From the sequence record SRR20825006_1644: a stretch of 53,680 bases of DNA. One strand, given 5' to 3'. Below are positions 7,859 to 26,002 of the stretch, piece by piece. The position numbers and the translations under genes are program-made. The notes beneath the pieces were generated by a model. It searched no databases. It worked only from the letters and a program-made list of their open reading frames with translations, and was not told where the DNA came from. Position 1 is the first letter of the stretch, and every line of letters begins with the position of its first letter.

Positions 7859-7873
7859 TAGGAATTTTTCCTA
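7859..7873. promoter_or_regulatory. Palindromic regulator box TAGGAA-TTT-TTCCTA upstream of the PepSY gene
   Basis: Perfect 6-3-6 inverted repeat matching boxes at 23794, 25751 and 25848; lies 17 nt from a minus-strand TAAACT (7836-7841), i.e. at the -35 position. Confidence 0.65.
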
Positions 7874-10377: not shown

Positions 10378-11031
10378 TCAAGGTTTAATCAGTCCCAGCA
10401 CCACCGCAATATTGGCCAGTTCAGCTGCTGTATTCACTTTGAGTTTGCTCTTAATCTGGGTGTTGTAATTCGCCACAGTTTTGTAACCCAGATGCAGATC
10501 ATTGGCTACGGCATGGGCAGTCATGCCCTTGGCCAGTCGACAAAACACATCGAATTCCCGTGGTGACAATAAATCCACAACTTCACGGTAATGCTCGATA
10601 TCCATGTGTCGCACATCATCGACTTCAGGCAAAAGCTTCTGTTCAATATACTGCTTGCCTTCAGCAACGGCTTTTACGGCCTCGGCCAAAACTTCGGCTG
10701 CACTGTTTTTGCTGACATAGCCTTTGGCGCCGGCCTGCAGTGCGCGCTCTACATAGATCGCTTCATCATGAATGCTGTAAACCAGTACAACGGCTTTAGC
10801 GTCCTGTTTATGCAGGCGGCGAATCGTTTCTAAACCGCCGATGCCCGGCATGGATAAATCCATCACTACGACGTCGGGTTGCAGACGTTCGTATTCCTGC
10901 GCCACCACTTCACCGCGATTAACATCTTTGATATCGCCAATAAAGGGCTCTGCTGACAGCAGAATACGGAAGCCGGCACGGACCACTTCATGGTCATCCA
11001 CCAGCAGAACACTGATATTATTATTCGTCAT
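10378..11031 (-). CDS. NarL/LuxR-family response regulator (MoxX/MxcE-like)
   Basis: REC domain (LVDDH, VMDLSMPG, GYVSK) plus LuxR HTH (LSPREFDV...KTVANY...KLKV); overlaps the kinase stop codon. Confidence 0.9.
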   Translation of the reverse strand: MTNNNISVLLVDDHEVVRAGFRILLSAEPFIGDIKDVNRGEVVAQEYERLQPDVVVMDLSMPGIGGLETIRRLHKQDAKAVVLVYSIHDEAIYVERALQAGAKGYVSKNSAAEVLAEAVKAVAEGKQYIEQKLLPEVDDVRHMDIEHYREVVDLLSPREFDVFCRLAKGMTAHAVANDLHLGYKTVANYNTQIKSKLKVNTAAELANIAVVLGLIKP

Positions 11032-12355
11032 TATTTCTCTCTATGAACGGCATCCAGGCCCTAACTCTTACCCCTACGCCGGGGTTAGATTCAAACGCAA
11101 ACTGGCCCCCCATACTCTCGACCCGCTCCCGCATGCCCAGAATACCGAACCCCTCTCCATCAGTTGAACCGCCGACCCCATCATCCTCGACCCTGACAAG
11201 TACTTGTTCCTGCCCTTTGATGATATGCCGCCTCACCGTCACCCTGGCTTTGCCTGCCTCTGAATGGCGGACGACGTTGGTCAGACACTCCTGAACGATG
11301 CGATAGACATGAATCGCTACCTCCTCATCCAGCCAGTCCACTGCCTCGTCATAATTAAGATCGATTTCCAGCGAGGGATGCCGACGCTGCCATTCAGTGA
11401 CCAAATCCGTCAGGGTGGCAGCCAGCCCGAGATCACTCAGACTCAATGGATGCAGGGTACGCATCATGGAACGAACCACGACCGCCAGATGATTACAGAT
11501 ATCAATAATTGAATCGGCAATCTCGTTAATTCTGGCCTGCGGCTGCTTGGTGGCTACGGCCATTGCTTTCACAGCAGTCAGCGACTGTCCCATTTCGTCA
11601 TGCAGTTCCCGTGACATGGTCTGCCGTTCATTTTCCTGAATATGCATGGTATGTCTGGCAAGTGCCTGGTTGTTCTGTCTGGCGGTGTTTAACGCCTCTG
11701 AGAGGTTATTAACTTCAGCAGCAATCGCATCAAACTCGCTGATTTTAAAATTAGGTAGTTTTTTACCGTACTCACCGCTCTCTACCCTTCTGAGACCAGC
11801 GAGAATGGCATGCACACTTCTCAGCATTGACTGAAACACGATATTGATGGCAATAAAAATGACTGTCATCATCAATACAATTGACCAGAAAAAAGCCAGT
11901 GATTCGCTCCAGGCTTCAGCAATTTCATCTATCGGATCAGCACGAATCAGAATGGTTTTGGTTGTGCCGTCCATCAGACGAATATCGTAACTGGCTGACG
12001 GATAATCAGTTGTCACGGCCATTTTGAACCAGGCTGGTGGCATCTCCTCCTGTTCTTCTGTCGTTTCATCTGATAGCCACTCACTTTCAGTACCGTCATC
12101 ATTCACCAGACTGATGTGAATGTGCCGTGTTTGCTGAATGGTGCTGAGCTGACGCATCCAATGCTGCTCACTGACCATGCGATTGGCCGGGTAACTGAAG
12201 CTCAGATCAATCATCTGCAAAGCCAGATTAAAGGAAGAATTAATTTCCTTTTCTACCGACTGGCGGGCCTGCCAGATGGCCATCAGCCCACCAATGATCA
12301 AAATCAACACAACTGAGAGAACAATCCTAGCATTGATCAGGCCTCGTAAACTCAT
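11021..12355 (-). CDS. NarX-type sensor histidine kinase, MoxY/MxaY/MxcQ-like
   Basis: Two TM segments around a periplasmic domain resembling LapD/MoxY_N (MSLR...ARQSVEKEINSS), then HAMP, HisKA_3 (SRELHDEMGQSLT) and HATPase (QECLTNVVRH, DDGVG, GFGILGMRER). Confidence 0.88.
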   Translation of the reverse strand: MSLRGLINARIVLSVVLILIIGGLMAIWQARQSVEKEINSSFNLALQMIDLSFSYPANRMVSEQHWMRQLSTIQQTRHIHISLVNDDGTESEWLSDETTEEQEEMPPAWFKMAVTTDYPSASYDIRLMDGTTKTILIRADPIDEIAEAWSESLAFFWSIVLMMTVIFIAINIVFQSMLRSVHAILAGLRRVESGEYGKKLPNFKISEFDAIAAEVNNLSEALNTARQNNQALARHTMHIQENERQTMSRELHDEMGQSLTAVKAMAVATKQPQARINEIADSIIDICNHLAVVVRSMMRTLHPLSLSDLGLAATLTDLVTEWQRRHPSLEIDLNYDEAVDWLDEEVAIHVYRIVQECLTNVVRHSEAGKARVTVRRHIIKGQEQVLVRVEDDGVGGSTDGEGFGILGMRERVESMGGQFAFESNPGVGVRVRAWMPFIERNNDE

Positions 12356-12361
12356 TGAAAC

Positions 12362-14605
12362 CTACCTGAAACCATTAATGTCACTCATCATATCGTCAAA
12401 TGGCTGGTCTGATACCAGATAGATCATTGATGAGGCATCATCACTGCCAACAGGCCCCAGTCGCCCGCTGTCCATCGCCGAAGCAAGCCAGCTTCCATTA
12501 AGCTCTTCACGTTTCAGTTCAATGACCTTGTCCGAACGGTTAAATAAAGAGACGGCAGTCACGTAGACATTGTGACGTCGCCAGCTCTCCAGCGGCACCG
12601 TTTTAATGGCGGGTTCCGCAAACAATCCTGCAGCAACCGGAATGGCTCTGAGTGATTCATAAGCACTGTCTTCTGCCCGTTGCACATCCGGCGATCTGAT
12701 TTTTTGAGCCGCATAATTGGTCATGTCACGGAAGGCTTCGGCCTGATAGGGTTGCGGGATGATTTCACTCTCCTCTGCCGCTTTATCCACGTTAATAAAC
12801 TTATTATCAAACTCCTGTGACTGCGGGTGCTTCTGATTGTAGTCACGATAAAAGCGATTTTCTGTGGTACGCAGTGATTCACTGTCCTCCGGCACATTCA
12901 TCACCCGGGGGGTAATCAGGAGCACGGTCTCGGTTTCCTGTTCACTCTCTGACGTTGATCGGAACACCCTTCCCAGTACAGGAATTTCACTGAGAATTGG
13001 TACCTTGCGTTCATTCTTGTTGGTACTGGTTCTGATAAGACCGCCGACTGCGACAGTCAGGCCATCTTTGGCCATGACCGTACCTGTCAATCTGGCTGTG
13101 TCTACCGTATCTACCGGTAGATTCTGAACCGAACCGGTTCCATCTGTTATCGGTACTGTGCCGCCTCCGGGGTTAACTGTGGAATTTTCCTGTTCGATTA
13201 AGAGTTCCACGGTTTCATCACCGTTGATTCTTGGCGTGATCCTAAGTGTAATACCAATATCTTCACGATTGATAATCGCCTGCACATAAGAAGGTTGAAC
13301 GACCACACCGTTATCAATGATCGCGGGGAAGAAGTCGAAACCTTCCGTTAATAAGGTTTCTTCACCGATAAACAGCTCGGCCTGACGGTGATTCGACGCG
13401 ACAATCATCGGATTAGAAAGCACCCGGATACGGTTATTCTCTTCCAGGAACTGCAGGTTGGCTCTTAGGCGGCTGTTCAAAAACTCATACACCAAGGTGC
13501 CGTTATTCAAGAGCGCATTATTACCTAACAGCGTGGGTTGCTGGGATTCATTAGCACCACTTGGTTGAATACTGAAATTGAAAATGGAGTTGAAATCTTC
13601 CCCCAGAATCACGCTCAAAATGCGCATCTCCAGCATGACCTGGGGAACAGGAATATCCATCCTGTCGATCAATTGTCTGATGCCTTTGAGCACAGACTTA
13701 TCGTCCGAACGCACCACCAGCATATTGTGTTCGTTATTGACCGTCACATAAATAGGCTGGGATTGAACCGTCGCTTGCTGCAGGGCTTCCTGGCTGACAT
13801 TTCTGCTGCCGGACTGCTCAAGCGCGGCAGCGATTTGTTCGATTTGATCGACCGTCAAGTCATCGCCTTCGAGCTGAGCGCCTGATTGTGTCAGATTGTT
13901 TTGTCCAAAATTGCTTCTGCTACTTCTGCCGCGACTGGAACTGCTCCGGTTGGAACGGGTATTTCTGACTGTGCTATTACCGCCACGAACACTACTAAAA
14001 CCGCCACCCCGGTTCAGGCCACTCGCAGCACTACCATTCCCGGTTCCGAAGCTATTCGATGCCGGCGGTAAGCCGTAGGATAAAATCACCCGCTGACCAA
14101 ACAGATCCTCAATGGCCTGAGCAATAATCAGGACATTGGCATTCAGTAAACGGAAGATTTCAATATTTTCACTCTCGCGAACAATCAGATCTTTGCTGTA
14201 CTGTTCACGGGTCATTATCCGGAATGTGTCGGTATCATCATCATAGCGATACCACAGATCACTGATACGACTGATGGATTTGACGGCATCCAGGACAGTC
14301 ACATTTTTAAGATGAATGGTGACCTGTTTCTGTGCCGCTTCCGGCGTAGCGATGATATTCTGGCGACTCAGCTCCGACAGCGTCCGAACCACATCACTGA
14401 TATTACTACCGGTAAATTCGACCTCTTTAATTCGTGTCGTATTATCCGGGTTGTCTAGAACAGGTCGAGCCGGTATCGGTTGCGGGCGCTCTGCAATGAA
14501 AGGCTGATTAGCAGCAGCCCGGTCTTGCGTTTCAGCCGACACCGGGCTGACAACCATCAGGCCCGCGAGTAAAAAGCTTTTTTTTATTGATTTCATATAA
14601 CTCAT
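12362..14605 (-). CDS. Secretin (GspD/PilQ family) with C-terminal DUF3438-like extension
   Basis: Signal peptide, N-domains and secretin core (QVMLEMRI, LSNPMIVASNHRQAELFIG, GITLRITPRIN, VGGLI, KVPILSEIPVLGRVF, LLITPRV), followed by about 170 extra residues. Confidence 0.9.
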   Translation of the reverse strand: MSYMKSIKKSFLLAGLMVVSPVSAETQDRAAANQPFIAERPQPIPARPVLDNPDNTTRIKEVEFTGSNISDVVRTLSELSRQNIIATPEAAQKQVTIHLKNVTVLDAVKSISRISDLWYRYDDDTDTFRIMTREQYSKDLIVRESENIEIFRLLNANVLIIAQAIEDLFGQRVILSYGLPPASNSFGTGNGSAASGLNRGGGFSSVRGGNSTVRNTRSNRSSSSRGRSSRSNFGQNNLTQSGAQLEGDDLTVDQIEQIAAALEQSGSRNVSQEALQQATVQSQPIYVTVNNEHNMLVVRSDDKSVLKGIRQLIDRMDIPVPQVMLEMRILSVILGEDFNSIFNFSIQPSGANESQQPTLLGNNALLNNGTLVYEFLNSRLRANLQFLEENNRIRVLSNPMIVASNHRQAELFIGEETLLTEGFDFFPAIIDNGVVVQPSYVQAIINREDIGITLRITPRINGDETVELLIEQENSTVNPGGGTVPITDGTGSVQNLPVDTVDTARLTGTVMAKDGLTVAVGGLIRTSTNKNERKVPILSEIPVLGRVFRSTSESEQETETVLLITPRVMNVPEDSESLRTTENRFYRDYNQKHPQSQEFDNKFINVDKAAEESEIIPQPYQAEAFRDMTNYAAQKIRSPDVQRAEDSAYESLRAIPVAAGLFAEPAIKTVPLESWRRHNVYVTAVSLFNRSDKVIELKREELNGSWLASAMDSGRLGPVGSDDASSMIYLVSDQPFDDMMSDINGFR

Positions 14606-15039
14606 CTTAAAACGCGTATACGACCCAATGTTCCGGTCTCAATCGTGATACTCAGGCGGGAAATCTCGGAAATACGAATTGCATTGGCAGGTTGCCGAGG
14701 ATCGATGTTGATCTCGTCCCCTTCTCGCACCATAAAAACGCCTTTTCCCGTGATCTCAAGCAATGCAAGCTGTTCTTGCGCCCCTTCAGGCGTGACAAAA
14801 CCTCTGAGCCGCATCTGGGGTATTTTGATATCAATATCATCGGGAGCAGGCCGAAAACCAAACGCATCAGAATCAATATTGGCCACTGTTCCGGCTTGTT
14901 CATACATCAAGGCACTGGGCGAGAATGGATCACGGATGAATGTTCTATCCGCACTGTTGGCCTGGGACAGGTCGTTGGCAGAAACCACGGTGATGACAGG
15001 TAATAAACTTGCCATCATTATTTTTATAAAAAATTTCAT
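14602..15039 (-). CDS. Exported PilP/GspC-HR-like assembly protein
   Basis: Signal peptide, RDPF motif and beta-rich C-terminus (LRGFV...ALLEI...VREGDEI); immediately upstream of the secretin. Start set at MKFFIK after an AGGA Shine-Dalgarno. Confidence 0.6.
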   Translation of the reverse strand: MKFFIKIMMASLLPVITVVSANDLSQANSADRTFIRDPFSPSALMYEQAGTVANIDSDAFGFRPAPDDIDIKIPQMRLRGFVTPEGAQEQLALLEITGKGVFMVREGDEINIDPRQPANAIRISEISRLSITIETGTLGRIRVLR

Positions 15040-15055
15040 TATGCTTTCCTGCTGG

Positions 15056-16270
15056 TTATGCTGCGAGGGCAAATAGCGCCTGAAAAAAGGCGTAGTAAAC
15101 AAACCCAACCATGCCACCAATCACCAGGATCATGGCTGGCTCGATCATTGCTGAAAGTCGTTTAATACCTATTTCAAGTAAGTTTTGATAATAAATGCCC
15201 AACTCCTGTTGAATTCGATCCAGGGAACCGGTTCTTTCCCCAATAGCGATCATGTGCGTTACCAGAGACGGCATCTGTGGATGCTGAATACTACTGGCAA
15301 GATCACGACCAGACATGACGCTATTTGACGCCTGCTTCAGCTTGTCTGAATAAATCTTGTTCGCTATCAGGTCTGCCGTTATTTTCAATGTGTCAAAAAT
15401 GGTAATACCGCTTCGCATCAGGATAGAAGAAGCCCAATTCAGTTGAGCCATAGAACCGAAAACGATCAGCTTCCCAAACACAGGTACGCTAAGGAGGACA
15501 CGATCAATCCAGCGGCGACCTTTATAAGTCCTGTAGGTAATAAATATGAGGATGATGATGGCGATGCTGACACCAATGATGGTGAGCCCGTTCTCTCTGA
15601 GAAAGGCAGCGCCATCGATCAGTGCCTGGGTCGAATCCGGCAGACGTTTGCCCCGCCCTTGGATAAACTGAGCAAATTTGGGAATAATCATCACGACCAT
15701 AAACACTGCCACACCAATCGCGGCAAGAATCACCACAACTGGATAAATCATCGCGTTAATCATTTGTTTACGTAGTTGCGATTTCTTTTCCAGATGAATC
15801 GCCAGCCGCTCCATGATGACATCCAGTTCACCGGTACTTTCACCGGCAACAACCAGGTTGATGGCGATATTGGGAAATACATCTGGATGTTTACCCAGTG
15901 CCGAGGACAAAGATTGTCCGGCTTCAATATCACGATGCATTTTTCGCAATGCCAGGTTCAGCCGTGGGCTACTCACTTGCGTTGCTGCAAGTTGTAGACA
16001 CTCAGCCAACGGAAGGCCTGCTCTGAGCATGAAGGCCATTTGTCTGTAAAAGAAAATAAGGGCATCCGTGGAAACCGAACGCTGGGTCGCATACCAGTCA
16101 CTGAAATTTTCTTCACCCAGAAAACCACTCCGGCGTCTTTCTTTGATATCAAGAACACGCAGACCTTCGGTGCGTAATGCCTGAGCAACAGCATTGGTAT
16201 TGTCAGCCTGCATTTTGCCTGAAAGCTCTTCACCGGTTCGGCTCAGTGCCTGATAAGCAAACATGGGCAT
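15056..16270 (-). CDS. Inner-membrane platform protein (GspF/PilC family)
   Basis: FAYQA, RQMAFMLRAGLPL, AGESTGELD, AMIYP, GERTGSLD and IEPAMI motifs. Confidence 0.93.
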   Translation of the reverse strand: MPMFAYQALSRTGEELSGKMQADNTNAVAQALRTEGLRVLDIKERRRSGFLGEENFSDWYATQRSVSTDALIFFYRQMAFMLRAGLPLAECLQLAATQVSSPRLNLALRKMHRDIEAGQSLSSALGKHPDVFPNIAINLVVAGESTGELDVIMERLAIHLEKKSQLRKQMINAMIYPVVVILAAIGVAVFMVVMIIPKFAQFIQGRGKRLPDSTQALIDGAAFLRENGLTIIGVSIAIIILIFITYRTYKGRRWIDRVLLSVPVFGKLIVFGSMAQLNWASSILMRSGITIFDTLKITADLIANKIYSDKLKQASNSVMSGRDLASSIQHPQMPSLVTHMIAIGERTGSLDRIQQELGIYYQNLLEIGIKRLSAMIEPAMILVIGGMVGFVYYAFFQALFALAA

Positions 16271-16271
16271 C

Positions 16272-17915
16272 TCAGCTCACCTCCGCTGTGTCATAACGTT
16301 TAAACACGGCAACATCACGAACCTCATCCAGGGTGGTGAGCCCTCTTAATACTTTTTCGCAGCCGTCTTCCCACATAAATTTCAGCGCTTTACCCGCATT
16401 CGCCTCTAAGGTTTCCTCATCAGCGCCTTTTGACACCATCCTGGCGAGCCGCTCATTGAACCATAAGGTTTCGAACAGACCAAGGCGTCCCCTGAAGCCC
16501 TGTCCCTGACAAACTGCGCAGCCCACAGGTTCAAAAATTTCAACCTCGTCTTCCACCCCCAGTAACACGCGCTCGTCCTCATTAGCTGGTCTTGCTTTAG
16601 CACAATGACGACAAAGACGTCTGACAAGACGCTGGGCAATCACTGCTGTCATGGTGGAACCAATCAGAAAGGGTTCACAACCAATATCTACCAGACGAGT
16701 CACAGCACTGACGGCATTGTTGGTATGCAGGGTAGAAAATACGAGGTGACCCGTCATCGCCGCTTTAACCGCAACATCAGCTGTTTCAGAATCACGAATC
16801 TCACCCACCATGAGAACATCCGGGTCATGTCGAAGCAGAGAACGCAAAGCATCGGCAAAATTGATTTTGGGGCCGGTCTGTATTTGCGAAATACCATCGA
16901 TGACATATTCGATCGGGTTTTCAACCGTCATGATATTAATATCAGGATGGTTGATTTCCTGTAGTGCCGCGCACAAGGTTGTCGATTTACCGCTTCCGGT
17001 CGGACCGGTCAGCAAAATCATGCCATAAGGTTTACGAATGGCCTGCTTGAACTCGAGCAGATCATTTTCCAGAAAGCCAAGATCAGTCAGGGTCAAACTG
17101 CTACTCTCACTGCCTAATAAACGCATGGTGATCCGTTCACCAAGTCGGGTAGGCGCAGTCGCTACACGAATGTTGAACTCCATACCGACCGGTGCCGCAA
17201 GATGATAGGAAAAGCCGCCATCTTGGGGCATCCGTTGTTCAGATATATCCAGGCCTGACAATACTTTCACCCTGGAAATCAAGCCTGCCGCCACAGACTG
17301 ATCGGCGTCCAATGGATAATCAGTCAACTTACCATCAACCCTGAAACGGATTCGTAGTCCCTCTTCCTCAGTCATCAAATGGACGTCTGAAGCCCGGTTG
17401 AGATAGGCGTCTCTGAGAACATGATCCAAGACAGCCACCAAGTCTGTCTCTGAGGCACTACTCTCATTGGCCTGAGCCACGGCCGTATTGGCTAGAACTT
17501 TTTTTACAACCAGACGGATACGCTCAGGATCACTCATCGTGACCGGCAGGGCATCACCGACCAGTCGCAGTGCAGAATCAATAGATACCCGATCAGTTGG
17601 ATCACTGATAACCAGCATATCTTCGCCAGCCACAGTCATGACCAGCATTTGCTTGCGGTTGATCAGACTGGATGGCAGTTTTTTAGTCAGCACTGAATTC
17701 AGTTTCGCATCATTCAGGTCAACAAATTGAATACCTTGCTCTTCAGCCAATGCCCGATGCATTGCCGATACAGGCAAACGATAATGTGCCAGTAATTTTG
17801 ACACTAAAGGCACACGTTCTCTTCTGGCAATCAGACGCAGCTGTTCCACGGTCGATTCTTCAATCAGCCCAGTTTGTACCCCTGCCCTTATCAGTTGTTC
17901 ATCTCTGACAGCCAT
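16272..17915 (-). CDS. Assembly ATPase (GspE/PilB family)
   Basis: ASDVH, RFRVDG, Walker A GPTGSGKST, LRHDPDVLMVGEIRD, TGHLVFSTLHTN and tetracysteine CRHC...CAVC. Confidence 0.95.
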   Translation of the reverse strand: MAVRDEQLIRAGVQTGLIEESTVEQLRLIARRERVPLVSKLLAHYRLPVSAMHRALAEEQGIQFVDLNDAKLNSVLTKKLPSSLINRKQMLVMTVAGEDMLVISDPTDRVSIDSALRLVGDALPVTMSDPERIRLVVKKVLANTAVAQANESSASETDLVAVLDHVLRDAYLNRASDVHLMTEEEGLRIRFRVDGKLTDYPLDADQSVAAGLISRVKVLSGLDISEQRMPQDGGFSYHLAAPVGMEFNIRVATAPTRLGERITMRLLGSESSSLTLTDLGFLENDLLEFKQAIRKPYGMILLTGPTGSGKSTTLCAALQEINHPDINIMTVENPIEYVIDGISQIQTGPKINFADALRSLLRHDPDVLMVGEIRDSETADVAVKAAMTGHLVFSTLHTNNAVSAVTRLVDIGCEPFLIGSTMTAVIAQRLVRRLCRHCAKARPANEDERVLLGVEDEVEIFEPVGCAVCQGQGFRGRLGLFETLWFNERLARMVSKGADEETLEANAGKALKFMWEDGCEKVLRGLTTLDEVRDVAVFKRYDTAEVS

Positions 17916-17924
17916 GGAAAACCT

Positions 17925-18581
17925 TTAAAGCGCTAAAATCATTTCAGTCTTAAGCATTTGGGAACTGCCCCTGAAGGGCGAGATTTCCAGTTTATCGATA
18001 TTCAGACGAATGACCGTGACTTGATAAGGAAGCTCATCGAGACCATGAATGAAGCGCCTTAGAGCGAGATAACTGCCATCGACTTCGAGGCGTTGCAGTG
18101 GTCGCTGAAACATCGACCCGGGGGACATACGTGTAATCCAACCGGTGGTGACGGGTGGAATGATTTCGTTGTCATCATTTCCACGCCGGTTGTTGTTTTT
18201 AAGTGGCTGCGGGCGCAAAGCCTCATTGACCCTAATCCTGATGCCACTATCACGAGCCAGTTCAGAAATCTTAACCTTCAATTCCTGTGAATCGACCGGA
18301 GCCAACTGCTGTTCGATCTGTACCGCGCTCTCGCGAATCGCATCGAGGGCTTTTTGCTGATCCTCCAGCTCCCGTTTGATTTCATCTATCCCCTCTTGTG
18401 GTTCAGTCGGAATTTCCATCTTGGCTAGGCGATTCAGCGTCGCATCTTTTTGCTGGTCAAGACTCTGTATGTTCTCCAGTCGAGGCTCGAAACGCAGAAG
18501 ACCATAACCACCAAGAACAATGACCAGTAGTATAATGCCGGCAAGTGCGCGTTCCCGATTATTGAGCTGTTTCAGTTTCAT
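17925..18581 (-). CDS. PilO/GspM-like alignment protein
   Basis: LNNRER followed by a single TM, coiled coil and ferredoxin-like C-terminus (GSYLALRRFIHGLDELP). Confidence 0.7.
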   Translation of the reverse strand: MKLKQLNNRERALAGIILLVIVLGGYGLLRFEPRLENIQSLDQQKDATLNRLAKMEIPTEPQEGIDEIKRELEDQQKALDAIRESAVQIEQQLAPVDSQELKVKISELARDSGIRIRVNEALRPQPLKNNNRRGNDDNEIIPPVTTGWITRMSPGSMFQRPLQRLEVDGSYLALRRFIHGLDELPYQVTVIRLNIDKLEISPFRGSSQMLKTEMILAL

Positions 18582-20335
18582 GCTTGTTTATCCTCAACTG
18601 CAGATTGGGGAATCACACGCACCAAACTCATTGAGACCGAGTAACCCGCCAGGTTCATCGGGCCGGTTTTTTCTGCCACCTGAATATCTCTCACTTCCAT
18701 ATCCCATGCAGCAACAGAAAGCTTCATATTCTGCACAAACTCCTGAGCTGCACTCTCTGTGAGCGCCCAGGCATCAATATTGAAATTATCGGTTTCCACA
18801 ACCCCAGGCTTGTTGAGCGGCGTAGCAGCAGGCTGTACGGTAGCACGACGGCCCATTTCATCAACACGACTAACGATAATCTGTTCGTTGATATTGTTCT
18901 GCAGTACCCCCAGGATGGCTTGTACCAGTAGCGCTCTTTCTGGGAGCGACTGACCGAAAAACTCGAGTCTGGCTTCCATCCGTCGCTGGCTTTCTTTTTG
19001 TTCTTTCAGCTCGGCTTTTTGCTTATCAATCGCTTCACGTTGCTTTTTGATGCGATCCACCGCCGTATCCAGCACCTCGGCCCGCTCATCGATCTCCGCT
19101 TTTTCTTTGCTGATAGCCGCATATTGGACCGACATAGTGACTTCAGAAATAACGATCAGGACCAGCATCGCTGCCACTAAAGCGGCGGCTTGTGTTTCAG
19201 TTCGATGCCAGGTTGGCGGCAAGGGGCCGCCCGGCCTCACGGAACTGATTTTTCTGGCCCCTTTCAGACCAAAAAAGAGTCTTCCGGCAGCAAACATGCC
19301 CGGAGACAACCCATCTCTGTCATCGAACATGACAAGGTCTGGCTCACTGGCGAGTGCCGAGCCCAGACTGCCGCGAAGACCTGGCAAGCTCTCTGGGGGC
19401 GCAGCCAGCACTACACCGGGATGCTGGGTATTCTCAGCATGGAAAACCTCCAGGCAGGCATCCAGCATAGACGCACTGCGGTTGACGTAATGCTGAACGG
19501 AAACAATATGATCCCGTTTCAGGTGGGAGGAGGTGGTAATGAACTCGGTAGTTTCCAGTAAGACAAGATGTTTTTCTGCGCGATCGATCAGCGCTACGCT
19601 GTTACCTGTCAGCGGCATAAGACCGTCCAGTTGAAGCTTGTAGTCCTGACAGAGCTCTTGCCACTTACTGAGCACAGATTGATGGGTCGCTGTGGTCAGC
19701 CAGTTCCACACGCCAGGAGCATCATCGACTTCTCCCTGTGCCGACCATCCACACTGGACCTCATCATCTTCCCCCCGGAGCCAGTCCTGAACCACAAAAA
19801 GTGACTGCGCCTGTTCACGTGTCACATAACCAAGCTCCAAGGCCACTTCACCAAACCGCCTACCGCGCTCGCCTTTTATGACTTCCTGTTTCAGCTGTTT
19901 CTGTGCCTGATTAATTTCCAGCACCTGCTCTGGTGACAGCATGCCGTGAGACTCCATCAACTGTCCCAGCGTCCACTGCAACTGATGTTGCATTAAAAGC
20001 GGTTCGACTTCCCAGCGAATCAACTCATGCATTTGATTGATAGGCTTGGGCTTTTTGGGTGATACGGGCAGTTCAACCAACGCAGACATCACTGATGGTG
20101 TCAGCACGATGATATGCTTTCCTTGCCAGCCCTGGGTTCTTAGAGAACTCAGAATCTGACTGAAAGCCACAGCCGGATCAATACTTTCTGAACTTGCTGT
20201 CGCCTGAACCTGGAGCTTTTTGCCCGCCTTGTTGAACACCGCAGCCTGCATCGACAGGCCCGTCCATTCACAGACCATGACGTTGTTCGGCCGCATTGCG
20301 CTTAATTTATCGGTCAGTTGTTTAAACTTCATCAT
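18578..20335 (-). CDS. PilM/PilN (GspL-like) fusion protein with inserted MshEN-like motif pair
   Basis: Cytoplasmic N-terminal part with PilM-like LP...ELIRWEVEPLL, one TM near residue 390, then coiled coil and PilN-like periplasmic end; operon position fits. Confidence 0.62.
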   Translation of the reverse strand: MMKFKQLTDKLSAMRPNNVMVCEWTGLSMQAAVFNKAGKKLQVQATASSESIDPAVAFSQILSSLRTQGWQGKHIIVLTPSVMSALVELPVSPKKPKPINQMHELIRWEVEPLLMQHQLQWTLGQLMESHGMLSPEQVLEINQAQKQLKQEVIKGERGRRFGEVALELGYVTREQAQSLFVVQDWLRGEDDEVQCGWSAQGEVDDAPGVWNWLTTATHQSVLSKWQELCQDYKLQLDGLMPLTGNSVALIDRAEKHLVLLETTEFITTSSHLKRDHIVSVQHYVNRSASMLDACLEVFHAENTQHPGVVLAAPPESLPGLRGSLGSALASEPDLVMFDDRDGLSPGMFAAGRLFFGLKGARKISSVRPGGPLPPTWHRTETQAAALVAAMLVLIVISEVTMSVQYAAISKEKAEIDERAEVLDTAVDRIKKQREAIDKQKAELKEQKESQRRMEARLEFFGQSLPERALLVQAILGVLQNNINEQIIVSRVDEMGRRATVQPAATPLNKPGVVETDNFNIDAWALTESAAQEFVQNMKLSVAAWDMEVRDIQVAEKTGPMNLAGYSVSMSLVRVIPQSAVEDKQA

Positions 20336-21402
20336 GGTTCAATATTCCAGCGGATTGGTCCGAGTTGCTGCCTGGGCAGGACCATTACCGTGTAAGGTGA
20401 GCTTGTCATTTCAGGGCAGCTTGTAGGCGGTGTTGCCGAGCTGTCGTCACAGCGGGTACTGACGATGTAATAACCTGCGGGCAATTTATCTGAAAACGCG
20501 GTTGAGGATGAGACAGCAACGGTATATTCATATATACCCCGTGCAGGAATGCTTGAACCCGGGGGGGTAAAAGTAAAATCACTGGCGTAGGCATTGGGAT
20601 CACCACTGCTTTTTGCCAACGTAACTGTCCACTCAAGACTGTTATCGAGATTTGATATGGCACTTGCTGCAGAGGTATTAACAAATCGAATATTGAAGCT
20701 ACTGGGGGCAAGCCAGTCATCTGCCACAATCAAATCGTCATTTCCCAAGGGCGGGTAGTCGTCGGCGGTAGAGCTCAGATCATAGCCGTCGCTGTAGAGA
20801 TAAAATATTTCTGCAGGTGGGTTAATCGGTGCAGTAATGGGTGCCGAATATTCGGTACCCGATTCAGCCAGTGTGACGGCCCAGCCATAATTGGGATCTG
20901 TCGGGTTGTTGCCATTCTGATAACCGTCTCTGAAACGTCGAACACCATCCTGCTCTGGATTAGTCTGGATATACGGACCATACCAGCCTGTGCGGACACC
21001 ACTTGCTGTGACTGTGGGCTTCAGCAATTCCAGCGATTCATCACAGGGCGAAATGTAAAAGCCGGGAGAGCTGGCGCTCAGAGTGAGATCAAAGGGCGAT
21101 GCGACAAGCTCTGCCAGACAATAGGGCAATCTGCCATTATCAACGACAAAGCCCGCCAATTCCGGCTGACCATTCACGACACGCTCCGTACTACGGATAA
21201 TCGCATCACGGATTATTGCCTGTCGACGCTGCGTTTCATTGAAATAGGCCTCATCCTGCTGACCTTCGGTGAACAATAAGCCAGCAGAGGCCAGAAGCCC
21301 CATCAGAAAAAGAACCAGAACTAACTCAAGTAGAGTAAAACCTTTTTGATAAGCTTGATTGAAATATCGCATGCGAGTCCTTTCAATCAGCGCATCAGGC
21401 AC
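20332..21402 (-). CDS. Large minor pilin/pseudopilin
   Basis: Class III signal QKG/FTLLELVLVLFLMGLLA; GWYGPYI motif. Confidence 0.85.
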   Translation of the reverse strand: MPDALIERTRMRYFNQAYQKGFTLLELVLVLFLMGLLASAGLLFTEGQQDEAYFNETQRRQAIIRDAIIRSTERVVNGQPELAGFVVDNGRLPYCLAELVASPFDLTLSASSPGFYISPCDESLELLKPTVTASGVRTGWYGPYIQTNPEQDGVRRFRDGYQNGNNPTDPNYGWAVTLAESGTEYSAPITAPINPPAEIFYLYSDGYDLSSTADDYPPLGNDDLIVADDWLAPSSFNIRFVNTSAASAISNLDNSLEWTVTLAKSSGDPNAYASDFTFTPPGSSIPARGIYEYTVAVSSSTAFSDKLPAGYYIVSTRCDDSSATPPTSCPEMTSSPYTVMVLPRQQLGPIRWNIEP

Positions 21403-22223
21403 AGGATAAGGTCATCGCCTTCGGCGATGCAGGGGTCATTGCCAGTGACCGGGTTGGCATCGTAATCAGGATCAATAACACCATCAGGGCCGGGGCTGAT
21501 AATCCGGGCAGTATCGGCTGGCAGAATATGATCAGCTGCTACAAATCCAGCATCTGAAGGCGTGAGACACTCATACAAATCACCGGTAACGTCATAGTTA
21601 TCACCGCCGCTGTTGACCAGGCATCGATAACGCGCACCATAAGTCAGTTCCGGGGCCAGCAGGATATAAGCATTTCCCCAGCTGTCAGTCAGCCCCTCTT
21701 TACTGATATATGCGCCATTCCAGCCTTGCTGCGTGCTGCTATTCCAGAGCAGGAAATCAAACGCTGCAATGTCGAAGGGAAATTGATTAAGCATCACCAG
21801 TGCGTTGGAGGCAACAGGTTCACCTGCACTATTGTTATAGTCTTCCTGACACCAATCCTGCCATGCGGCGGCATCTGACGGAACGGGCGTTAGATCAAAC
21901 CCGCTAGTAAAGTCGATGTGATTTTCATGGGCGTTAACGTCGTTGACGGTATTTGGACTGAAATCACCCTGGCGATAGACCATGCAGGGCAACTCACGAT
22001 TGTCACGACGAAACTGTAATAAGGCCTTTTGCAGCTCTGCCATTTCCAGTCGAGTCACATTCTCCCGGGCCTGGTCTTCATTGCCATCAAAAGCATTAAT
22101 AGCGGCAATACTGACGATACCCAGCAAAACGATGACAAGCAGAATTTCGACCAGTGTGAAACCGGTCTGATAACTAGATGAGAAATTTGCTTTGTTTGGT
22201 CGGTCAAACAATAAAAACCACAT
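21387..22223 (-). CDS. GspG-like pseudopilin with insertions
   Basis: QTG/FTLVEILLVIVLLGIV; GspG-type WNGAYI..DSWGNAY, SPGPDG and terminal GDDL. Confidence 0.85.
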   Translation of the reverse strand: MWFLLFDRPNKANFSSSYQTGFTLVEILLVIVLLGIVSIAAINAFDGNEDQARENVTRLEMAELQKALLQFRRDNRELPCMVYRQGDFSPNTVNDVNAHENHIDFTSGFDLTPVPSDAAAWQDWCQEDYNNSAGEPVASNALVMLNQFPFDIAAFDFLLWNSSTQQGWNGAYISKEGLTDSWGNAYILLAPELTYGARYRCLVNSGGDNYDVTGDLYECLTPSDAGFVAADHILPADTARIISPGPDGVIDPDYDANPVTGNDPCIAEGDDLILCLMR

Positions 22224-22348
22224 TTACTTGTTCCCGATAATAATTTTATTCAGTGACGTGTAACGCACACCCTCTTCAACGCTGCATATCATCCTGTTCA
22301 TACAAAACGTTCTGGCAATAAGATTTATTGACGCAACGTTCTAAGATT

Positions 22349-22374
22349 AAGAAAGGGCGGGCAAAGCCCGCCCC
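22349..22374 (-). terminator. Intrinsic terminator/attenuator after the major pilin
   Basis: Minus strand GGGCGGGC-TTT-GCCCGCCC-TTTCTT. Confidence 0.8.
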
Positions 22375-22397
22375 TGTTATGGCATCTCTATGCGAGA

Positions 22398-23399
22398 TTA
22401 TTGCTGAGCTTCAGACACCAGTTGGTCGATGTTTTTACCATCAGGAGAGACGATAGCAATCAGACGAATAGTTTCATTCCACTGCATTTCGTTTACATCA
22501 AAGTTAAATTCACCAGCTTGGAACAGACCGATGTAACGCGAATAGTGAGTTTCTGGGTTAACTTCAGTGTCTTCATCACCAGTGTTTCGTACATAAGTTG
22601 GTGATTGAGCGATTGCAACATTACTGAAAGTGGTAGATGCTGCAGCATCACCACCAAAGCCTAATGCAATCAGGACATGGCATTCGTCACCTTCTAATGC
22701 GTCACCATACTGGTTCTGCAGGTTGTTACCAGATACAGTCACAGTAGTATCAAATGCATTTGCTGGGTAATCTACCAGGGCAGTAGCTGCACCACCTGCT
22801 TGACAGTTGTCGTTAGGAACAACAGCAAATCTGGCAGGTAAATCACCATCCTCTATTTCGACCTCAGCAGAGTCACCGGTACTCTCGTTGTGGAAACGGT
22901 TTGGTGCTTGATCCCCATTTGGCGTGCCACCAGCGTTCACGACTTGCAGTTCTTCAATGCCAGACTCTTCAAGCATTTCGATCATTGCATCACCTTTACC
23001 GCTATCACCAGATACACCAGGTGTCCATGCAGCGAGGAAAGAATCCATGATTGGCGCTCTGAAAGTCAATTGTGAACCCGCAGAATCCACCAAATTATCC
23101 CATTGGTTAGGGTAAACATTTTCAACCGCACGATAAGTACGGATAGCACGGTCAATAGTCGCTGCGGCGTTACCGGCAGAGGCGGCTTCTGCTGACTGAC
23201 CCACATCTTCGTAGGCAATCAGCGCACCCGTGGCCAAAATGGCGATCAGGGTGATAACAACCAGCAGCTCCAACAGGGTGAAGCCTTTTTCTTTACCTTG
23301 CAGGCTTTGTGCTTTGTTACGCAGTTTTGCGTCTTTGATGACTGACAAATCCGCTTTACGGAATTTGGCAATCGCCGATTTCATTTGGTTAATATTCAT
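22398..23399 (-). CDS. Probable major pilin (large, acidic, long leader)
   Basis: EKG/FTLLELLVVITLIAILA class III signal after a 39-aa leader; first pilin of the cluster and followed by a terminator. Confidence 0.85.
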   Translation of the reverse strand: MNINQMKSAIAKFRKADLSVIKDAKLRNKAQSLQGKEKGFTLLELLVVITLIAILATGALIAYEDVGQSAEAASAGNAAATIDRAIRTYRAVENVYPNQWDNLVDSAGSQLTFRAPIMDSFLAAWTPGVSGDSGKGDAMIEMLEESGIEELQVVNAGGTPNGDQAPNRFHNESTGDSAEVEIEDGDLPARFAVVPNDNCQAGGAATALVDYPANAFDTTVTVSGNNLQNQYGDALEGDECHVLIALGFGGDAAASTTFSNVAIAQSPTYVRNTGDEDTEVNPETHYSRYIGLFQAGEFNFDVNEMQWNETIRLIAIVSPDGKNIDQLVSEAQQ

Positions 23400-23521
23400 T
23401 TATATCTCTCTCAGGGTTTGAGCCTCAGCCACCCCTAGCGGCCTGTTGGACATCGGGTTAAAAAGTTGTTTCAGGATGTGACCCGCTCACACTCTGTTGC
23501 CGTCCGGATTAATTATTTTTG

Positions 23522-23728
23522 TCAGGAAGCCGCTCCCTGCTCACCCGGGAAATCGATCACATAACGGTATTGTTTACCGCAATGCAAAATGACCTCTTTC
23601 TGACGGCGTTTAAGAATACGAACTTCAACACGAATATCGCCATAACCGTCATGCGCAAGAATATCGTCAACCAGTTCCAGCAGTTTGGCTTTAACAGGCT
23701 GTTGGTCAGTGTCGACTTTGGCATTCAT
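23522..23728 (-). CDS. 68-aa hypothetical protein leading the filament operon
   Basis: GGAGAG Shine-Dalgarno; helix then HDGYG then beta strands; first ORF after the boxed promoter. Confidence 0.7.
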   Translation of the reverse strand: MNAKVDTDQQPVKAKLLELVDDILAHDGYGDIRVEVRILKRRQKEVILHCGKQYRYVIDFPGEQGAAS

Positions 23729-23764
23729 GAAATGACTCTCTCCGCTTGAACTTCGTTGACAGTG

Positions 23765-23812
23765 ATAGTAGGCGAATCAGGAAGGCTTCCCTATAGGAAT
23801 AATTCCTGAAAT
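23765..23812 (-). promoter_or_regulatory. Filament-operon promoter: box (23794-23808) plus -10 TACTAT (23765-23770)
   Basis: TAGGAA-TAA-TTCCTG with a 23-nt gap to TACTAT on the minus strand; a second degenerate box CAGGAA-GGC-TTCCCT lies at 23778-23792. Confidence 0.7.
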
Positions 23813-23921
23813 TCAAAACCGCACTTTTCCGGCCGCATTCAGCACAGATTCCCATCGATAAAAGGCGATCCTGCTGTTTGCATAAGTAAGCTGGCTGTGT
23901 GCTGAAAACGGCATCGTGTGC

Positions 23922-25685
23922 TTATTCCGCTGGTTTATATGGATCCTGCAGAATAATCAGGATAGGCAGCAGCTGGTTCTGCTGTTTTTTAATGACCTGC
24001 GCCAATACAAAACGATGATAGACCTCGCGGTATTCCGGGAACTGCTTGATTGCCATACGAATCATCTTCTGCGCTTCAACCGGTTTATTATTCATCGCCA
24101 GCAGGTAGGCATGGGTATAGGTTTCAACACGACCCGGCCAGTTTTCAATGACTTGCTGGCTGATAATTAGCTTATCTTTCAACAGCCCCGGCTGGTTGGG
24201 CAGTACTCGGACCAGGAAATTATCAGCAACCGGGGTAAAGACCGAGGTTTCCCTGAGCTGGTAGAGCTTTTCAAGGTTTTTATCGATTTCCGACTGCGGC
24301 AAACCTTCTTCACGTAATGACGTAAGCGTGGTTTCCAGCTGATGGTAGTTGGTCTGCAAACTGCCCAGAGACCAGACGGCAAAGATAAATATCACCAGAA
24401 AGAAAACCGGTGCCAGATTAAACCGGACCTGAAGCGGACGCTCAGAACCCAGGCCCAATAGCAGGCTGGCTATCGCCAGGAAGGTCATGTACCACAGTGG
24501 ATACTCCAGCATGCTGTGAATGCCGATTACCGACAACAGTGCCAGCAGCCACCAACGCTCGGCCGTCATTTGGCTCTGAAACTGCTCTCTGAACCAGTAC
24601 AGCATACCGATCGTCAGAATCAGCGCGCCGACGATGCCGGTTTCTGCAAGCAACTGCAGAATCAGATTATGGGCATGGTGCCAGAGTCCTTTCAGGGACG
24701 GATAGGATTCGGTAATGGAAAAGTTATACCAGGAGAACTCTGCCCAGCCGGCGCCAAGCCAAGAGTGCTGTTTGAATAAAAGCCAGGCTTGCTCAATCAG
24801 GATTAAACGGCTCGACTCGCTGCCCATGGTCTGCACCAGGCGTTCTGCAGGCATTTTGGCGGGTTCCAGAAAGGCAAGCAGCGGAACGATGAACTGGGCA
24901 GCGATAAAGCCCGGAATCAACCAGAGCAGCATGATCGGTTTTATCGCTGTTGGCTGATTGTATGAAAACGTTCTGGCTAGTAACCAGCCGCCTACAGAGA
25001 GTAATGCCACATAAAGGATAGCCATCCGCTGACCACCCTGGGCAAAGCCTATCAGAATCAGGGCGCTGATCAGGACAGTGATGACGGTATTGATCCGCCC
25101 AGTGAGCCGGAGGTATAGCAGTGAAGCCAGCCCCAGCGCGAGATAGTTGGAAAAATGGTTAGCCTGGCCGATATTGCCGGATTTGCCACCCAGTATCCAT
25201 TTGGCAAACACACTCTCATCAGGAAGAAGTTTGCCAATAGGCAGCAGAATCATGATGAGCGTAGCACCCACCACAAAAGCCCAGGCAATCGTCGGTACGA
25301 TTCTTTCCAATGACAGAGAGTGCTTTAGGTTGGCGGCAAGAATCATCAGTAATGCTGTCATCCCGAGATAAAGCATAGCGACAAATTGATTCTGCCAGTA
25401 ATCCGGCACTCCAAGGGCTACCTGTAAACCCAGAACGACAATTAAGCCCAGTGGAACAAAAGTTACTGGCGGGATTTGAAGTTTTTCCTGTCTGTGACCA
25501 ATTAAAAAAAGGCTGGCGAATACCGCCAGTAATGCGGCAAACCACTCGTTGTAAAAACTGGCTATCGGTGGCATGTGATACGGGGACAAGAACGGCACCA
25601 CACACATCAATGCCAGCATGAAAATACTGAAACTGGCAATGAGTGAACGTGGTTTATCGTCGTAGGAAGTTGCTGCTGCCGTCAT
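23922..25685 (-). CDS. pglL: PglL-family O-oligosaccharyltransferase (pilin glycosylation ligase)
   Basis: Multi-TM protein; GNIGQANHFSNYL, Wzy_C HAHNLILQLLAETG and HSMLEYPLWY signatures. Confidence 0.85.
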   Translation of the reverse strand: MTAAATSYDDKPRSLIASFSIFMLALMCVVPFLSPYHMPPIASFYNEWFAALLAVFASLFLIGHRQEKLQIPPVTFVPLGLIVVLGLQVALGVPDYWQNQFVAMLYLGMTALLMILAANLKHSLSLERIVPTIAWAFVVGATLIMILLPIGKLLPDESVFAKWILGGKSGNIGQANHFSNYLALGLASLLYLRLTGRINTVITVLISALILIGFAQGGQRMAILYVALLSVGGWLLARTFSYNQPTAIKPIMLLWLIPGFIAAQFIVPLLAFLEPAKMPAERLVQTMGSESSRLILIEQAWLLFKQHSWLGAGWAEFSWYNFSITESYPSLKGLWHHAHNLILQLLAETGIVGALILTIGMLYWFREQFQSQMTAERWWLLALLSVIGIHSMLEYPLWYMTFLAIASLLLGLGSERPLQVRFNLAPVFFLVIFIFAVWSLGSLQTNYHQLETTLTSLREEGLPQSEIDKNLEKLYQLRETSVFTPVADNFLVRVLPNQPGLLKDKLIISQQVIENWPGRVETYTHAYLLAMNNKPVEAQKMIRMAIKQFPEYREVYHRFVLAQVIKKQQNQLLPILIILQDPYKPAE

Positions 25686-25721
25686 TGACTGATTCCCGCT
25701 GGGTAGTTTGAAAATCAGTCA

Positions 25722-25765
25722 ATCTTAGTGAGGCAATGACAAACAGGCACTAGGAAAAAATCCTA
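25722..25765 (-). promoter_or_regulatory. pglL promoter: box (25751-25765) plus -10 TAAGAT (25722-25727)
   Basis: TAGGAA-AAA-ATCCTA with a 23-nt gap to minus-strand TAAGAT. Confidence 0.65.
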
Positions 25766-25804
25766 TTTTGCTGCTTGTTCAAGTTCACATTATTGGGATG
25801 TTGG

Positions 25805-25820
25805 TGTGATCTGTCTCACA
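25805..25820. promoter_or_regulatory. CRP/Vfr-type site
   Basis: TGTGA-TCTGTC-TCACA, a perfect match to TGTGA-N6-TCACA. Confidence 0.6.
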
Positions 25821-25843
25821 ATTCCTTTTTGAACATGAACTAG

Positions 25844-25891
25844 ATTTCAGGAATTATTCCTATAGGTCTTCGGGGGTTATGGGGAAATAAT
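25844..25891 (+). promoter_or_regulatory. Plus-strand promoter: box (25848-25862) plus -10-like AATAAT (25886-25891)
   Basis: CAGGAA-TTA-TTCCTA with a 23-nt gap to AATAAT; 25844-25866 is the exact reverse complement of 23790-23812. Confidence 0.6.
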
Positions 25892-25896
25892 GAGAA

Positions 25897-26002
25897 TGAG
25901 ATTACTTAATAATCTCGCATTACTCGTCTGTCATGATGACAGCCCCTTAGAGGTCGGCTCTTGACTCTCACTGTGGGTGGCTAGCCACCCACAGTTATTT
26001 TT
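25897..26002 (+). ncRNA. Candidate ~105-nt small RNA (or short-peptide transcript)
   Basis: Boxed promoter upstream, several hairpins, and a terminator whose T-tail is on the plus strand where no gene is annotated. The 5' end is estimated. Confidence 0.55.
25970..26002 (+). terminator. Intrinsic terminator, plus-strand polarity
   Basis: ACTGTGGGTGG-CTAG-CCACCCACAGT followed by TATTTTT. Confidence 0.75.

Follow-up and report, generated by a model that had tools for sequence, protein, structure and literature searches.

The described machines closest to the gene cluster treated here are the mannose-sensitive haemagglutinin (MSH) pilus of Vibrio, the T2SS (type II secretion system) and the type IVa pilus (T4aP). 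The MSH pilus has a fused PilM/PilN-type protein, MshI, and in the T4aP of Neisseria, Pseudomonas and Acinetobacter a pilin glycosylase of the PglL/TfpO type is encoded beside the pilin gene. The known parts of lanthanide uptake in methylotrophs are TonB receptors, lanmodulin, lanpepsy and, in some species, a chelator. As described in the available parts of the respective articles, the MSH pilus receives cyclic di-GMP (c-di-GMP) input through an MshEN module (PMC5013675), and lanpepsy is defined by small size, a periplasmic location and two PepSY domains (PMC9988556, PMC12482762). Here we describe a cluster of filament- and secretion-type genes on a stretch of 53,680 nt from sequence record SRR20825006_1644, referred to below, over its whole length, as the window. 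We consider it fairly probable that a complete machine is encoded here which belongs to a clade of its own within the type IV filament superfamily, that it builds a surface pilus, and that in Methylophaga it is regulated by an adjacent kinase-regulator pair. New in this analysis are a clade test, an MshEN-like insert, an operator and an association with lanpepsy-like genes.

The window is from Methylophaga. Its 585-aa protein (P585) shows 95% amino acid identity to M. thiooxydans DMS010, and the genome-wide statements below are drawn from this strain and other relatives. The preliminary description had drawn a contiguous minus-strand gene string (P68, three pilins, P585, P218, ATPase, platform, a small open reading frame (ORF), secretin, kinase and regulator), and all twelve ORFs were confirmed in place by the ORF map along with Pfam and NCBIfam scans (Table 1). 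The genes between the second pilin and the regulator, these two included, are as tightly spaced as had been claimed, neighbours overlapping by 4-16 nt or lying 1-13 nt apart; the secretin-kinase gap measures 6 nt on the ORF map, the kinase and regulator ORFs overlap by 11 nt, and the PglL gene does lie upstream of the cluster. For P172, the small periplasmic protein, the start codon is most likely the ATG at 15042 and not the ORF start at 15120, because signal peptide and homolog alignment agree on it, and with this start there is no overlap with the platform gene. The order P68-pilins-P585-P218-ATPase-platform-P172-secretin is kept in 27 loci of named genomes and in 7/8 more distant loci, hence the arrangement is not due to chance.

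All three prepilins carry the N_methyl prepilin motif G↓FTL(L/V)E, and the generic parts of the type IV filament superfamily (three N_methyl prepilins, T2SSE, T2SSF and Secretin) all score above the Pfam cut-offs. The NCBIfam equivalog models for the known classes all stay below theirs. The ATPase scores 469.7 for GspE (cut-off 630.25) and 463.4 for PilB (cut-off 675.65), the platform 304.3 for GspF (cut-off 424), and the secretin 148.8 for GspD, 115.8 for PilQ and 94.9 for MshL (cut-offs 351.35, 284.35 and 250.2). PF05134, the GspL family, matched in 0/5 genomes carrying the cluster; GspM and the minor pseudopilins were below cut-off (T2SSM 17.4/27.8, GspH <=34/80, GspJ <=22.5/64.85), and GspI and GspK gave no match.

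To place the ATPase, a tree of 71 rows was computed by a quick IQ-TREE run with a PilT-like outgroup, with 13 near-identical rows of the window system left out. Reference ATPases took their labels from the NCBIfam cut-offs that they themselves reach (14 of 25 GspE loci and 14 of 20 PilB loci), and the MshE references are 13 ATPases located about 3 kb from MshL genes. The genome tallies behind the GspE and PilB loci include one genome flagged as unpublished, G573, on which none of the claims depends. The ATPases of the window system form one branch of 14 rows with full support in the Shimodaira-Hasegawa-like approximate likelihood ratio test (SH-aLRT 100), inside a wider branch of 22 rows (SH-aLRT 99) which includes the distant variants and a Methylobacter ATPase (L121). 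This branch is apart from GspE (SH-aLRT 97), the PilB core (SH-aLRT 100) and the MshE groups, while the deep order of the four groups is not settled by the tree. With the equivalog models below cut-off, the GspL family absent and the ATPase in a clade of its own, the earlier statement that the locus fits neither T2SS nor T4aP holds, and it extends to MSH.

With the MSH pilus the cluster has in common a PilM/PilN-type fusion, a protein like PilO and another that is small and periplasmic, a secretin, a single assembly ATPase and an operon lacking a dedicated PilT; it differs in gene order, in the MshL score and in an ATPase outside both MshE groups, no MshM or MshN was seen in the window, and where the MSH pilus has many small pilins and carries MshEN on the ATPase, the window system has three large pilins and an MshEN_N-like module in its PilM-like protein. 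With the T4aP it shares prepilins of the G↓F..xE type, the actin-like PilM fold, a secretin and a glycosylase gene of PglL/TfpO type beside the pilin genes, whereas PilM and PilN are here fused and carry an insert, PilT is missing from the cluster, the PilB and PilQ scores are below cut-off, the pilins have 250-335 residues and the major pilin has a leader of 39 aa.

The PilMN-like gene of the preliminary description was confirmed by predicted fold and Foldseek as a PilM-PilN-type fusion with GspL topology. The AlphaFold2 model of P585 (mean predicted local distance difference test, pLDDT, 82.6) contains an actin-like domain, a transmembrane (TM) and coiled-coil part (379-481) and, at the C-terminus, a PilN/GspL-like periplasmic domain of alpha-beta type (486-584). 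We assign the fusion because the actin-like domain matches PilM (5eou, E 2.8e-11), the EpsL cytoplasmic domain (1yf5, E 1.9e-7) and FtsA. P218 is kept in 33 loci and P172 in 29; the latter has no Pfam family or PDB sequence match and occupies the PilP/GspC position of the gene order, so that its likeness to these proteins is one of position only. As had been noted, the cluster contains no prepilin peptidase or retraction ATPase, although a PilT-like ATPase is present elsewhere in the window (48559-49662). The word self-contained overstates the case, since the pilBCD locus has to provide the peptidase; in M. thiooxydans a single prepilin peptidase is encoded, beside pilB, and pilT and pilU lie at other places.

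A four-helix insert at about residues 122-186 of the PilM-like domain of P585 resembles the MshEN_N module. The model NF053729 matched it with E 0.0094, and a profile of the P585 family found MshE (5htl) as its best match among 177,635 PDB sequences (E 0.022, both motifs in register). A model of the insert alone (pLDDT 81) has the four-helix fold of MshEN_N (MshE residues 8-65), and when it was aligned by VIA-align to 48,161 chains the top five were all ATPase N-domains. These were MshE 5htl_B with c-di-GMP (Z 10.1, root mean square deviation (rmsd) 2.0 A, 58 residues, 31% identity; a Z of 10 is within the range of unrelated helical bundles), two Thermus PilF GSPII domains, Xanthomonas PilB-N and XpsE-N. 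Foldseek likewise placed 5htl_B first, with rmsd 1.3 A but E 0.46. Three independent weak signals thus agree in suggesting the likeness. For scoring we used a relaxed MshEN c-di-GMP motif as given in the available part of PMC5013675. Motif II of the insert (R160-Q183) fits it exactly, and relaxed motif II was found in 20/36 P585 homologs as against 3/2000 shuffles. The relaxed motif is found in 0/34 ATPases of the system and, among the references, in 7/13 MshE, 0/25 GspE and 0/20 PilB. Binding of c-di-GMP by the insert thus seems plausible. At the level of titles and abstract beginnings, the literature held no MshEN insertion in a PilM fusion.

The mature pilins are 257-335 residues long with pI 4.05-4.2, and they diverge much faster than the motor, being 30-45% identical across loci where the ATPase is 57-71% identical. 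The ORF model of the major pilin gives the leader of 39 aa in 14/29 homologs, and PglL is linked to the cluster in 13/27 loci. The most conserved part of the system is P68, with 52-99% identity across 23 loci. It has no match in Pfam, NCBIfam or PDB, though it may resemble small YezD-like proteins, a likeness that was not confirmed; it has 2398 clusters in the protein collection, and among its best 120 relatives 12/12 organism-named rows belong to methylotroph genera. The terminator behind the first pilin gene, the PglL linkage, the fast divergence and the large acidic pilins speak for a surface pilus, which we favour over secretion.

The alternative that survives best, unlikely in our judgement though a serious one, is a divergent T2SS whose pseudopilus, assembled in the periplasm from the three pilins, would drive folded cargo, such as the lanpepsy-like or other lanthanide-related proteins, through the secretin. 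The secretins of M. thiooxydans number only two, and so do its long ATPases (PilQ/PilB and this set); the species has no GspL and lacks a GspE above cut-off, whereas 76/121 sampled Gammaproteobacteria, a tally that includes G573, have one; having no canonical T2SS, it could have in the cluster its only secretion-type machine. The GspL topology of P585 with EpsL/GspL cytoplasmic domains among its fold matches, the T2SSG match and GspG-like core of the 278-aa pilin, the weak T2SSM match of P218, the GspE/F/D superfamily parts and the lack of a retraction ATPase are all shared with the T2SS. Against such a system stand an ATPase outside the GspE clade, Gsp scores below cut-off, PF05134 unmatched, and the lack of GspC and of any GspH/I/J/K set above cut-off. 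A strong terminator behind the first pilin gene and a glycosylation gene also set the cluster apart, and the PglL linkage along with fast-evolving pilins of 250-335 residues suggests surface exposure. Further, a profile search of sampled genomes found the P585 family in 26/83 Methylophagaceae, 18/201 Methylophilaceae and 22/251 Methylococcales, a patchy presence unlike that of a housekeeping secretion system.

A phylogenetic footprint upstream of P68 revealed the palindrome AGGAA-N3-TTCCT. The window holds three perfect and three one-mismatch copies where 1.35 are expected, and 0/100 shuffles reached six; all three perfect copies are located in promoters of minus-strand genes, namely P68, PglL and a lanpepsy-like gene. 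Related loci, 650 kb in total, contain 24 perfect palindromes, where 20 shuffles gave 0-2. The core cluster genes are free of them, and the assignable ones are upstream of P68, PglL, kinase or lanpepsy-like genes. A perfect copy is situated 159-166 nt upstream of PglL in four loci (L001, L002, L003 and L007), and the same type of palindrome precedes the lanpepsy-like genes of L013, L016 and L039. Perfect palindromes are present in 13 loci that have the kinase-regulator pair next to the cluster and also in L027 and L036, for which a pair was not detected; they were found in 0/14 Methylococcales, Methylophilaceae and distant loci and in 0/10 kinase-paralog loci, the one linked to methanol dehydrogenase (MDH) included. 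The palindrome tracks the lineages with the adjacent pair. Locus L036, a distant variant with no kinase-regulator pair within 20 kb, has two perfect palindromes (L036:2423-2458) upstream of a 76-aa ORF.

The pair itself is MoxY/MxaY-like as described earlier, with a LapD_MoxY_N periplasmic domain on the histidine kinase and a Response_reg/GerE partner. Synteny of the two-component genes with the cluster holds for 15/21 full-length loci, including 13/13 of Methylophaga type, where the pair is either downstream of the secretin or divergent from P68, and two Methylotenera loci; it fails in 6/21, where the pair is unlinked. As far as the available parts of the sources show, the kinase shares a periplasmic LapD/MoxY domain, HAMP and a LuxR-type partner with MxaY of Methylomicrobium buryatense and MxaYX of Paracoccus (PMC6115532), and its acidic motif before TM2 includes Glu147, which agrees, by number only, with the residue mutated in a constitutive MxaY (PMC5018670). 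The kinase is a paralog, with 27-37% identity, of kinases beside the pyrroloquinoline quinone (PQQ) methanol dehydrogenase genes of M. thiooxydans, and a DPxDExxExW motif before TM2 is conserved among paralogs. Unlike the MxaY/MoxY kinases, that of the window is not beside methanol dehydrogenase genes. Pfam scans of the window proteins revealed no PQQ-MDH gene, and the M. thiooxydans MDH genes at C9:82-86 kb have kinase-regulator pairs of their own. Genetic linkage of the pair to methanol dehydrogenase genes was thus not found. In the M. thiooxydans region C9:75000-88000 (L123), two PQQ methanol/ethanol dehydrogenase genes of 592 aa each are interleaved with a third regulator and two kinase-regulator pairs of LapD_MoxY_N type that stand in tandem, and these pairs are likely the true MDH-linked MoxYX systems of the genus.

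One might instead regard the pair as a mere neighbour that controls lanpepsy-like, hsp20, other or unlinked genes while the filament is regulated otherwise, an explanation to which we assign a low probability. It would account for the unlinked pair in Methylomicrobium wino1 and in most Methylophilaceae loci, and for the order kinase-regulator-lanpepsy-like with gaps of 89-123 nt in L013, L016 and L026. It is harder to reconcile with the same palindrome before P68, PglL and the lanpepsy-like gene, with a secretin-kinase gap of 6 nt, and with an adjacency that survives both inversion of the pair's position and replacement of pilins and platform in L039. In this last locus (genome G252) the pair (61-85% identity) and the secretin (58%) are kept while the P585 gene is only 21% identical; as the chromosomal site is the same, recombination seems to have exchanged part of the cluster. 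A DNA-uptake (competence) or ordinary T4aP-like pilus, odd only through sequence divergence, is very unlikely, for although its parts list is common to any type IV filament, the genomes already carry a canonical PilB/PilC/PilD/PilQ/PilT/PilU set, platform architecture, pilin size and ATPase clade all differ, and the examined flanks, where Pfam was run on selected neighbours only, showed no genes of ComEA/ComEC type.

A lanpepsy-like homolog is located within 16 kb of the P585 gene in 13/25 genomes examined (6/6 Methylophagaceae, 3/7 Methylophilaceae and 4/12 Methylococcales). With 0-2 such copies per genome of 2.3-5.6 Mb the rough chance expectation is about 1-2% per genome; as the 25 genomes are related, the count of 13/25 is not to be read as a probability. 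The 184-aa gene of the window (Table 1) is proposed, from its palindrome, to be a member of the same regulon as the pilin operon and PglL. This protein and a second one of 166 aa in the window fit the published definition of lanpepsy, and like LanP (Mfla_0908) of Methylobacillus flagellatus both are small and acidic with two PepSY domains and hydrophobic, signal-peptide-like N-termini. The gene for the second (34533-35033, minus strand) is directly beside a TonB-dependent receptor gene (35095-37389, minus strand), resembling published lanthanide-uptake pairs, and no palindrome was found upstream of it. The shared palindrome together with the lanpepsy-like association points indirectly to a possible lanthanide or C1 signal for the cluster. 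In the available parts of the lanpepsy literature (PMC9988556, PMC12482762) we found no link to a pilus or secretion cluster, and a literature search on lanthanides and pilin in methanotroph transcriptomes gave generic pilA expression only.

A pattern scan of 185,579 species genomes resulted in the 27 loci mentioned: 15 Methylophaga, one 'Pseudomaricurvus' metagenome-assembled genome (MAG), two Gammaproteobacteria MAGs, Methylobacter marinus, Methylomicrobium wino1 and seven Methylophilaceae/Methylotenera. In the tight clade all organism-named relatives are methylotrophs or methanotrophs, except for the 'Pseudomaricurvus' MAG, which is probably mis-binned (its P585 is 78% identical). Methylococcales nest among Methylophaga in the ATPase tree. 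As the tight clade is methylotroph-specific and patchy, lateral spread is suggested. In a class-wide sample 7/401 genomes carry the P585 family, three of them Methylophaga and four with distant variants; one of these four has MCH and PQQ-MDH, one MCH only and two neither. The wider P585 family is rare (369 of 1.84 billion representatives at E <= 1e-10) and is not limited to methylotrophs. An island of M. mobilis JLW8 described as a 'unique Type II secretion/pilus' (mmol_1380-1409) is, according to the available part of PMC3728764, expressed on methanol at levels that exceed those on methylamine by as much as 1000-fold; no JLW8-named protein was among the P585 homologs, and homology of this island to the window cluster could not be shown.

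Taken together, we picture a machine in which the housekeeping PilD would cleave the three prepilins, and the first pilin (333 aa) would be the major subunit; a regulated promoter would serve it together with P68, and most transcripts would end at the hairpin. By sequence and fold the inner-membrane platform is composed of the PilM-PilN fusion, the PilO/GspM-like protein and the GspF/PilC protein; PglL would O-glycosylate the major pilin, and a filament of large, very acidic subunits would be pushed through the secretin to the surface with no dedicated retraction motor. In Methylophaga the LapD_MoxY_N kinase and the LuxR-type regulator may act via AGGAA-N3-TTCCT before the pilin operon, PglL and the lanpepsy-like gene; given these shared operators, production of the filament would go along with that of a periplasmic protein of lanthanide-binding type. 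The MshEN_N-like module of the PilM-like domain may offer c-di-GMP a second way of entry.

A number of observations weigh against this picture of a regulated surface pilus. The ATPase tree was made by a 'quick' method and contains no T4bP, Tad or Com references; M. thiooxydans lacks a canonical T2SS, and the GspG-like pilin core, the GspL topology of the platform and the missing retraction ATPase are as expected of one. In the insert, motif I (T122-Q145) keeps G3, G10 and Q24 but has no Arg at position 1, the spacer between the motifs is 14 residues and not 5, and its Z score is one that unrelated helical bundles reach; the available part of PMC5013675 states that XpsE, with the same fold, does not bind c-di-GMP, so the fold alone is not enough for binding. 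The pair is not found within 10 kb in the six unlinked loci (two Methylococcales and four Methylophilaceae), and its best Methylococcales orthologs are 15 kb or 1.9 Mb from the cluster, in a context where nothing on pili or methanol dehydrogenase was found. The palindrome is Methylophaga-specific, and it is through co-occurrence that the adjacent regulator appears as its candidate binder. The label lanpepsy-like was given by description and domains, not by alignment with the characterised Mfla_0908, and distant variants occur in two genomes lacking methylotrophy markers. Finally, four RNA runs (7% of words) gave only one contig of 38 nt, on the terminator hairpin, which speaks neither for nor against expression or co-transcription of the genes. 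This contig (window 22349-22379) is from an RNA-seq run of another organism and matches only the hairpin behind the major pilin gene; the match is probably due to chance or to a repeated GC-rich stem.

Some further features lie beside or outside the core. The C-terminus of the secretin (window 12362-12800, residues ~600-738) is DUF3438/TIGR03749-like, a domain otherwise known from integrating conjugative elements; from the Methylophilaceae secretins, whose alignment covers only 68-77% of the protein, it seems to be missing. After the secretin, nine Methylophaga and three distant loci have a Pom-family outer-membrane porin gene (282 bits; L007:17978-19096), which is missing from the window, where the kinase follows directly. 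In Methylophilaceae (L020:17874-19500 and five other loci) a conserved 225-aa protein of no known family is encoded there, and in four of the loci the next protein has 315 aa and a retropepsin-like aspartyl protease domain. The window also contains, beside accA and dnaE, a minus-strand ATPase pair, the 367-aa PilT-like protein (48559-49662) and one of 560 aa (49696-51378; MshEN 75.7 bits) which forms a long branch near the MshE groups in the tree. At the matching place in M. thiooxydans DMS010 a PF00437 search found the PilT-like ATPase only. It could be from this orphan pair that some filament obtains retraction or a second motor.

Table 1. Features of the cluster, its associated genes and the palindromes, by position in the window
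Feature	Position	Strand	Characteristics
Lanpepsy-like gene, 184 aa, acidic	7201-7755	minus	signal peptide; Pfam PepSY, 2 stretches
Palindrome AGGAATTTTTCCT	7860-7872		perfect; 105 nt upstream of the lanpepsy-like gene 7201-7755
Response regulator, NarL/LuxR-type	10378-11031	minus	Response_reg 87 bits, GerE 42 bits
Sensor histidine kinase	11021-12355	minus	periplasmic LapD_MoxY_N 28.1 bits (cut-off 25), HAMP, HisKA_3, HATPase_c
Secretin	12362-14605	minus	Secretin 124.4 bits; C-terminal DUF3438/TIGR03749-like domain
P172, small periplasmic protein	14602-15042 (ORF 14602-15120)	minus	signal peptide, RDPF motif, C-terminal beta domain
Platform, GspF/PilC family	15056-16270	minus	T2SSF 171.4 bits
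Assembly ATPase, GspE/PilB superfamily	16272-17915	minus	T2SSE 401.6 bits; Walker A; CxxC...CxxC motif
P218, PilO/GspM-like bitopic protein	17925-18581	minus	weak matches: T2SSM E 0.0054, PilO E 0.086
P585, PilM-PilN-type fusion	18578-20335	minus	no Pfam match; assigned by fold
Large acidic prepilin, 356 aa	20332-21402	minus	N_methyl motif; mature pI 4.16
Large acidic prepilin, 278 aa, GspG-like core	21387-22223	minus	N_methyl; T2SSG 34.7 bits
Terminator-like hairpin	22353-22375	minus	stem of 10 bp (8 GC), T-rich tail; immediately behind the first pilin gene
Probable major pilin, 333 aa	22398-23399	minus	N_methyl 33.6 bits; 39-aa leader; mature pI 4.05; Ala/Ser-rich stretches
P68, small cytoplasmic protein, no known family	23522-23728	minus	first gene of the pilin operon
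One-mismatch palindrome	23779-23791		upstream of P68; both P68 copies span 51-79 nt upstream
Palindrome AGGAATAATTCCT	23795-23807		perfect; -67 to -79 of P68
PglL-type O-oligosaccharyltransferase	23922-25685	minus	Wzy_C_2 118.7, Wzy_C 50.1, PglL_A 29.0 bits, all above cut-off
One-mismatch palindrome	25752-25764		-67 to -79 of PglL
Palindrome AGGAATTATTCCT	25849-25861		perfect; -164 to -176 of PglL

The locus bears on the question of how poorly soluble lanthanides are located, mobilised and taken up by methylotrophs, as a conserved, apparently laterally shared filament machine, a sensor of MoxY architecture and a lanpepsy-type gene are joined here by a shared operator and by repeated genomic association. 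We speculate, at a level of confidence that is low, that the cluster encodes a lanthanide-responsive and possibly c-di-GMP-gated pilus, whose acidic O-glycosylated subunits would capture rare-earth ions or attach the cell to particles or minerals; the ions would pass to the co-regulated lanpepsy-type proteins, and module and operator would have spread horizontally among Methylophaga, Methylococcales and Methylophilaceae. If this is true, an MshEN c-di-GMP module has moved from the ATPase to the PilM-like protein, which would be a new gating of a type IV filament. Independently of lanthanides, the locus adds a distinct clade to the type IV filament superfamily, and with the MshEN-like module in a PilM-PilN fusion an architecture not found in the literature searched. 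It is a testable candidate for an extracellular arm of lanthanide biology.

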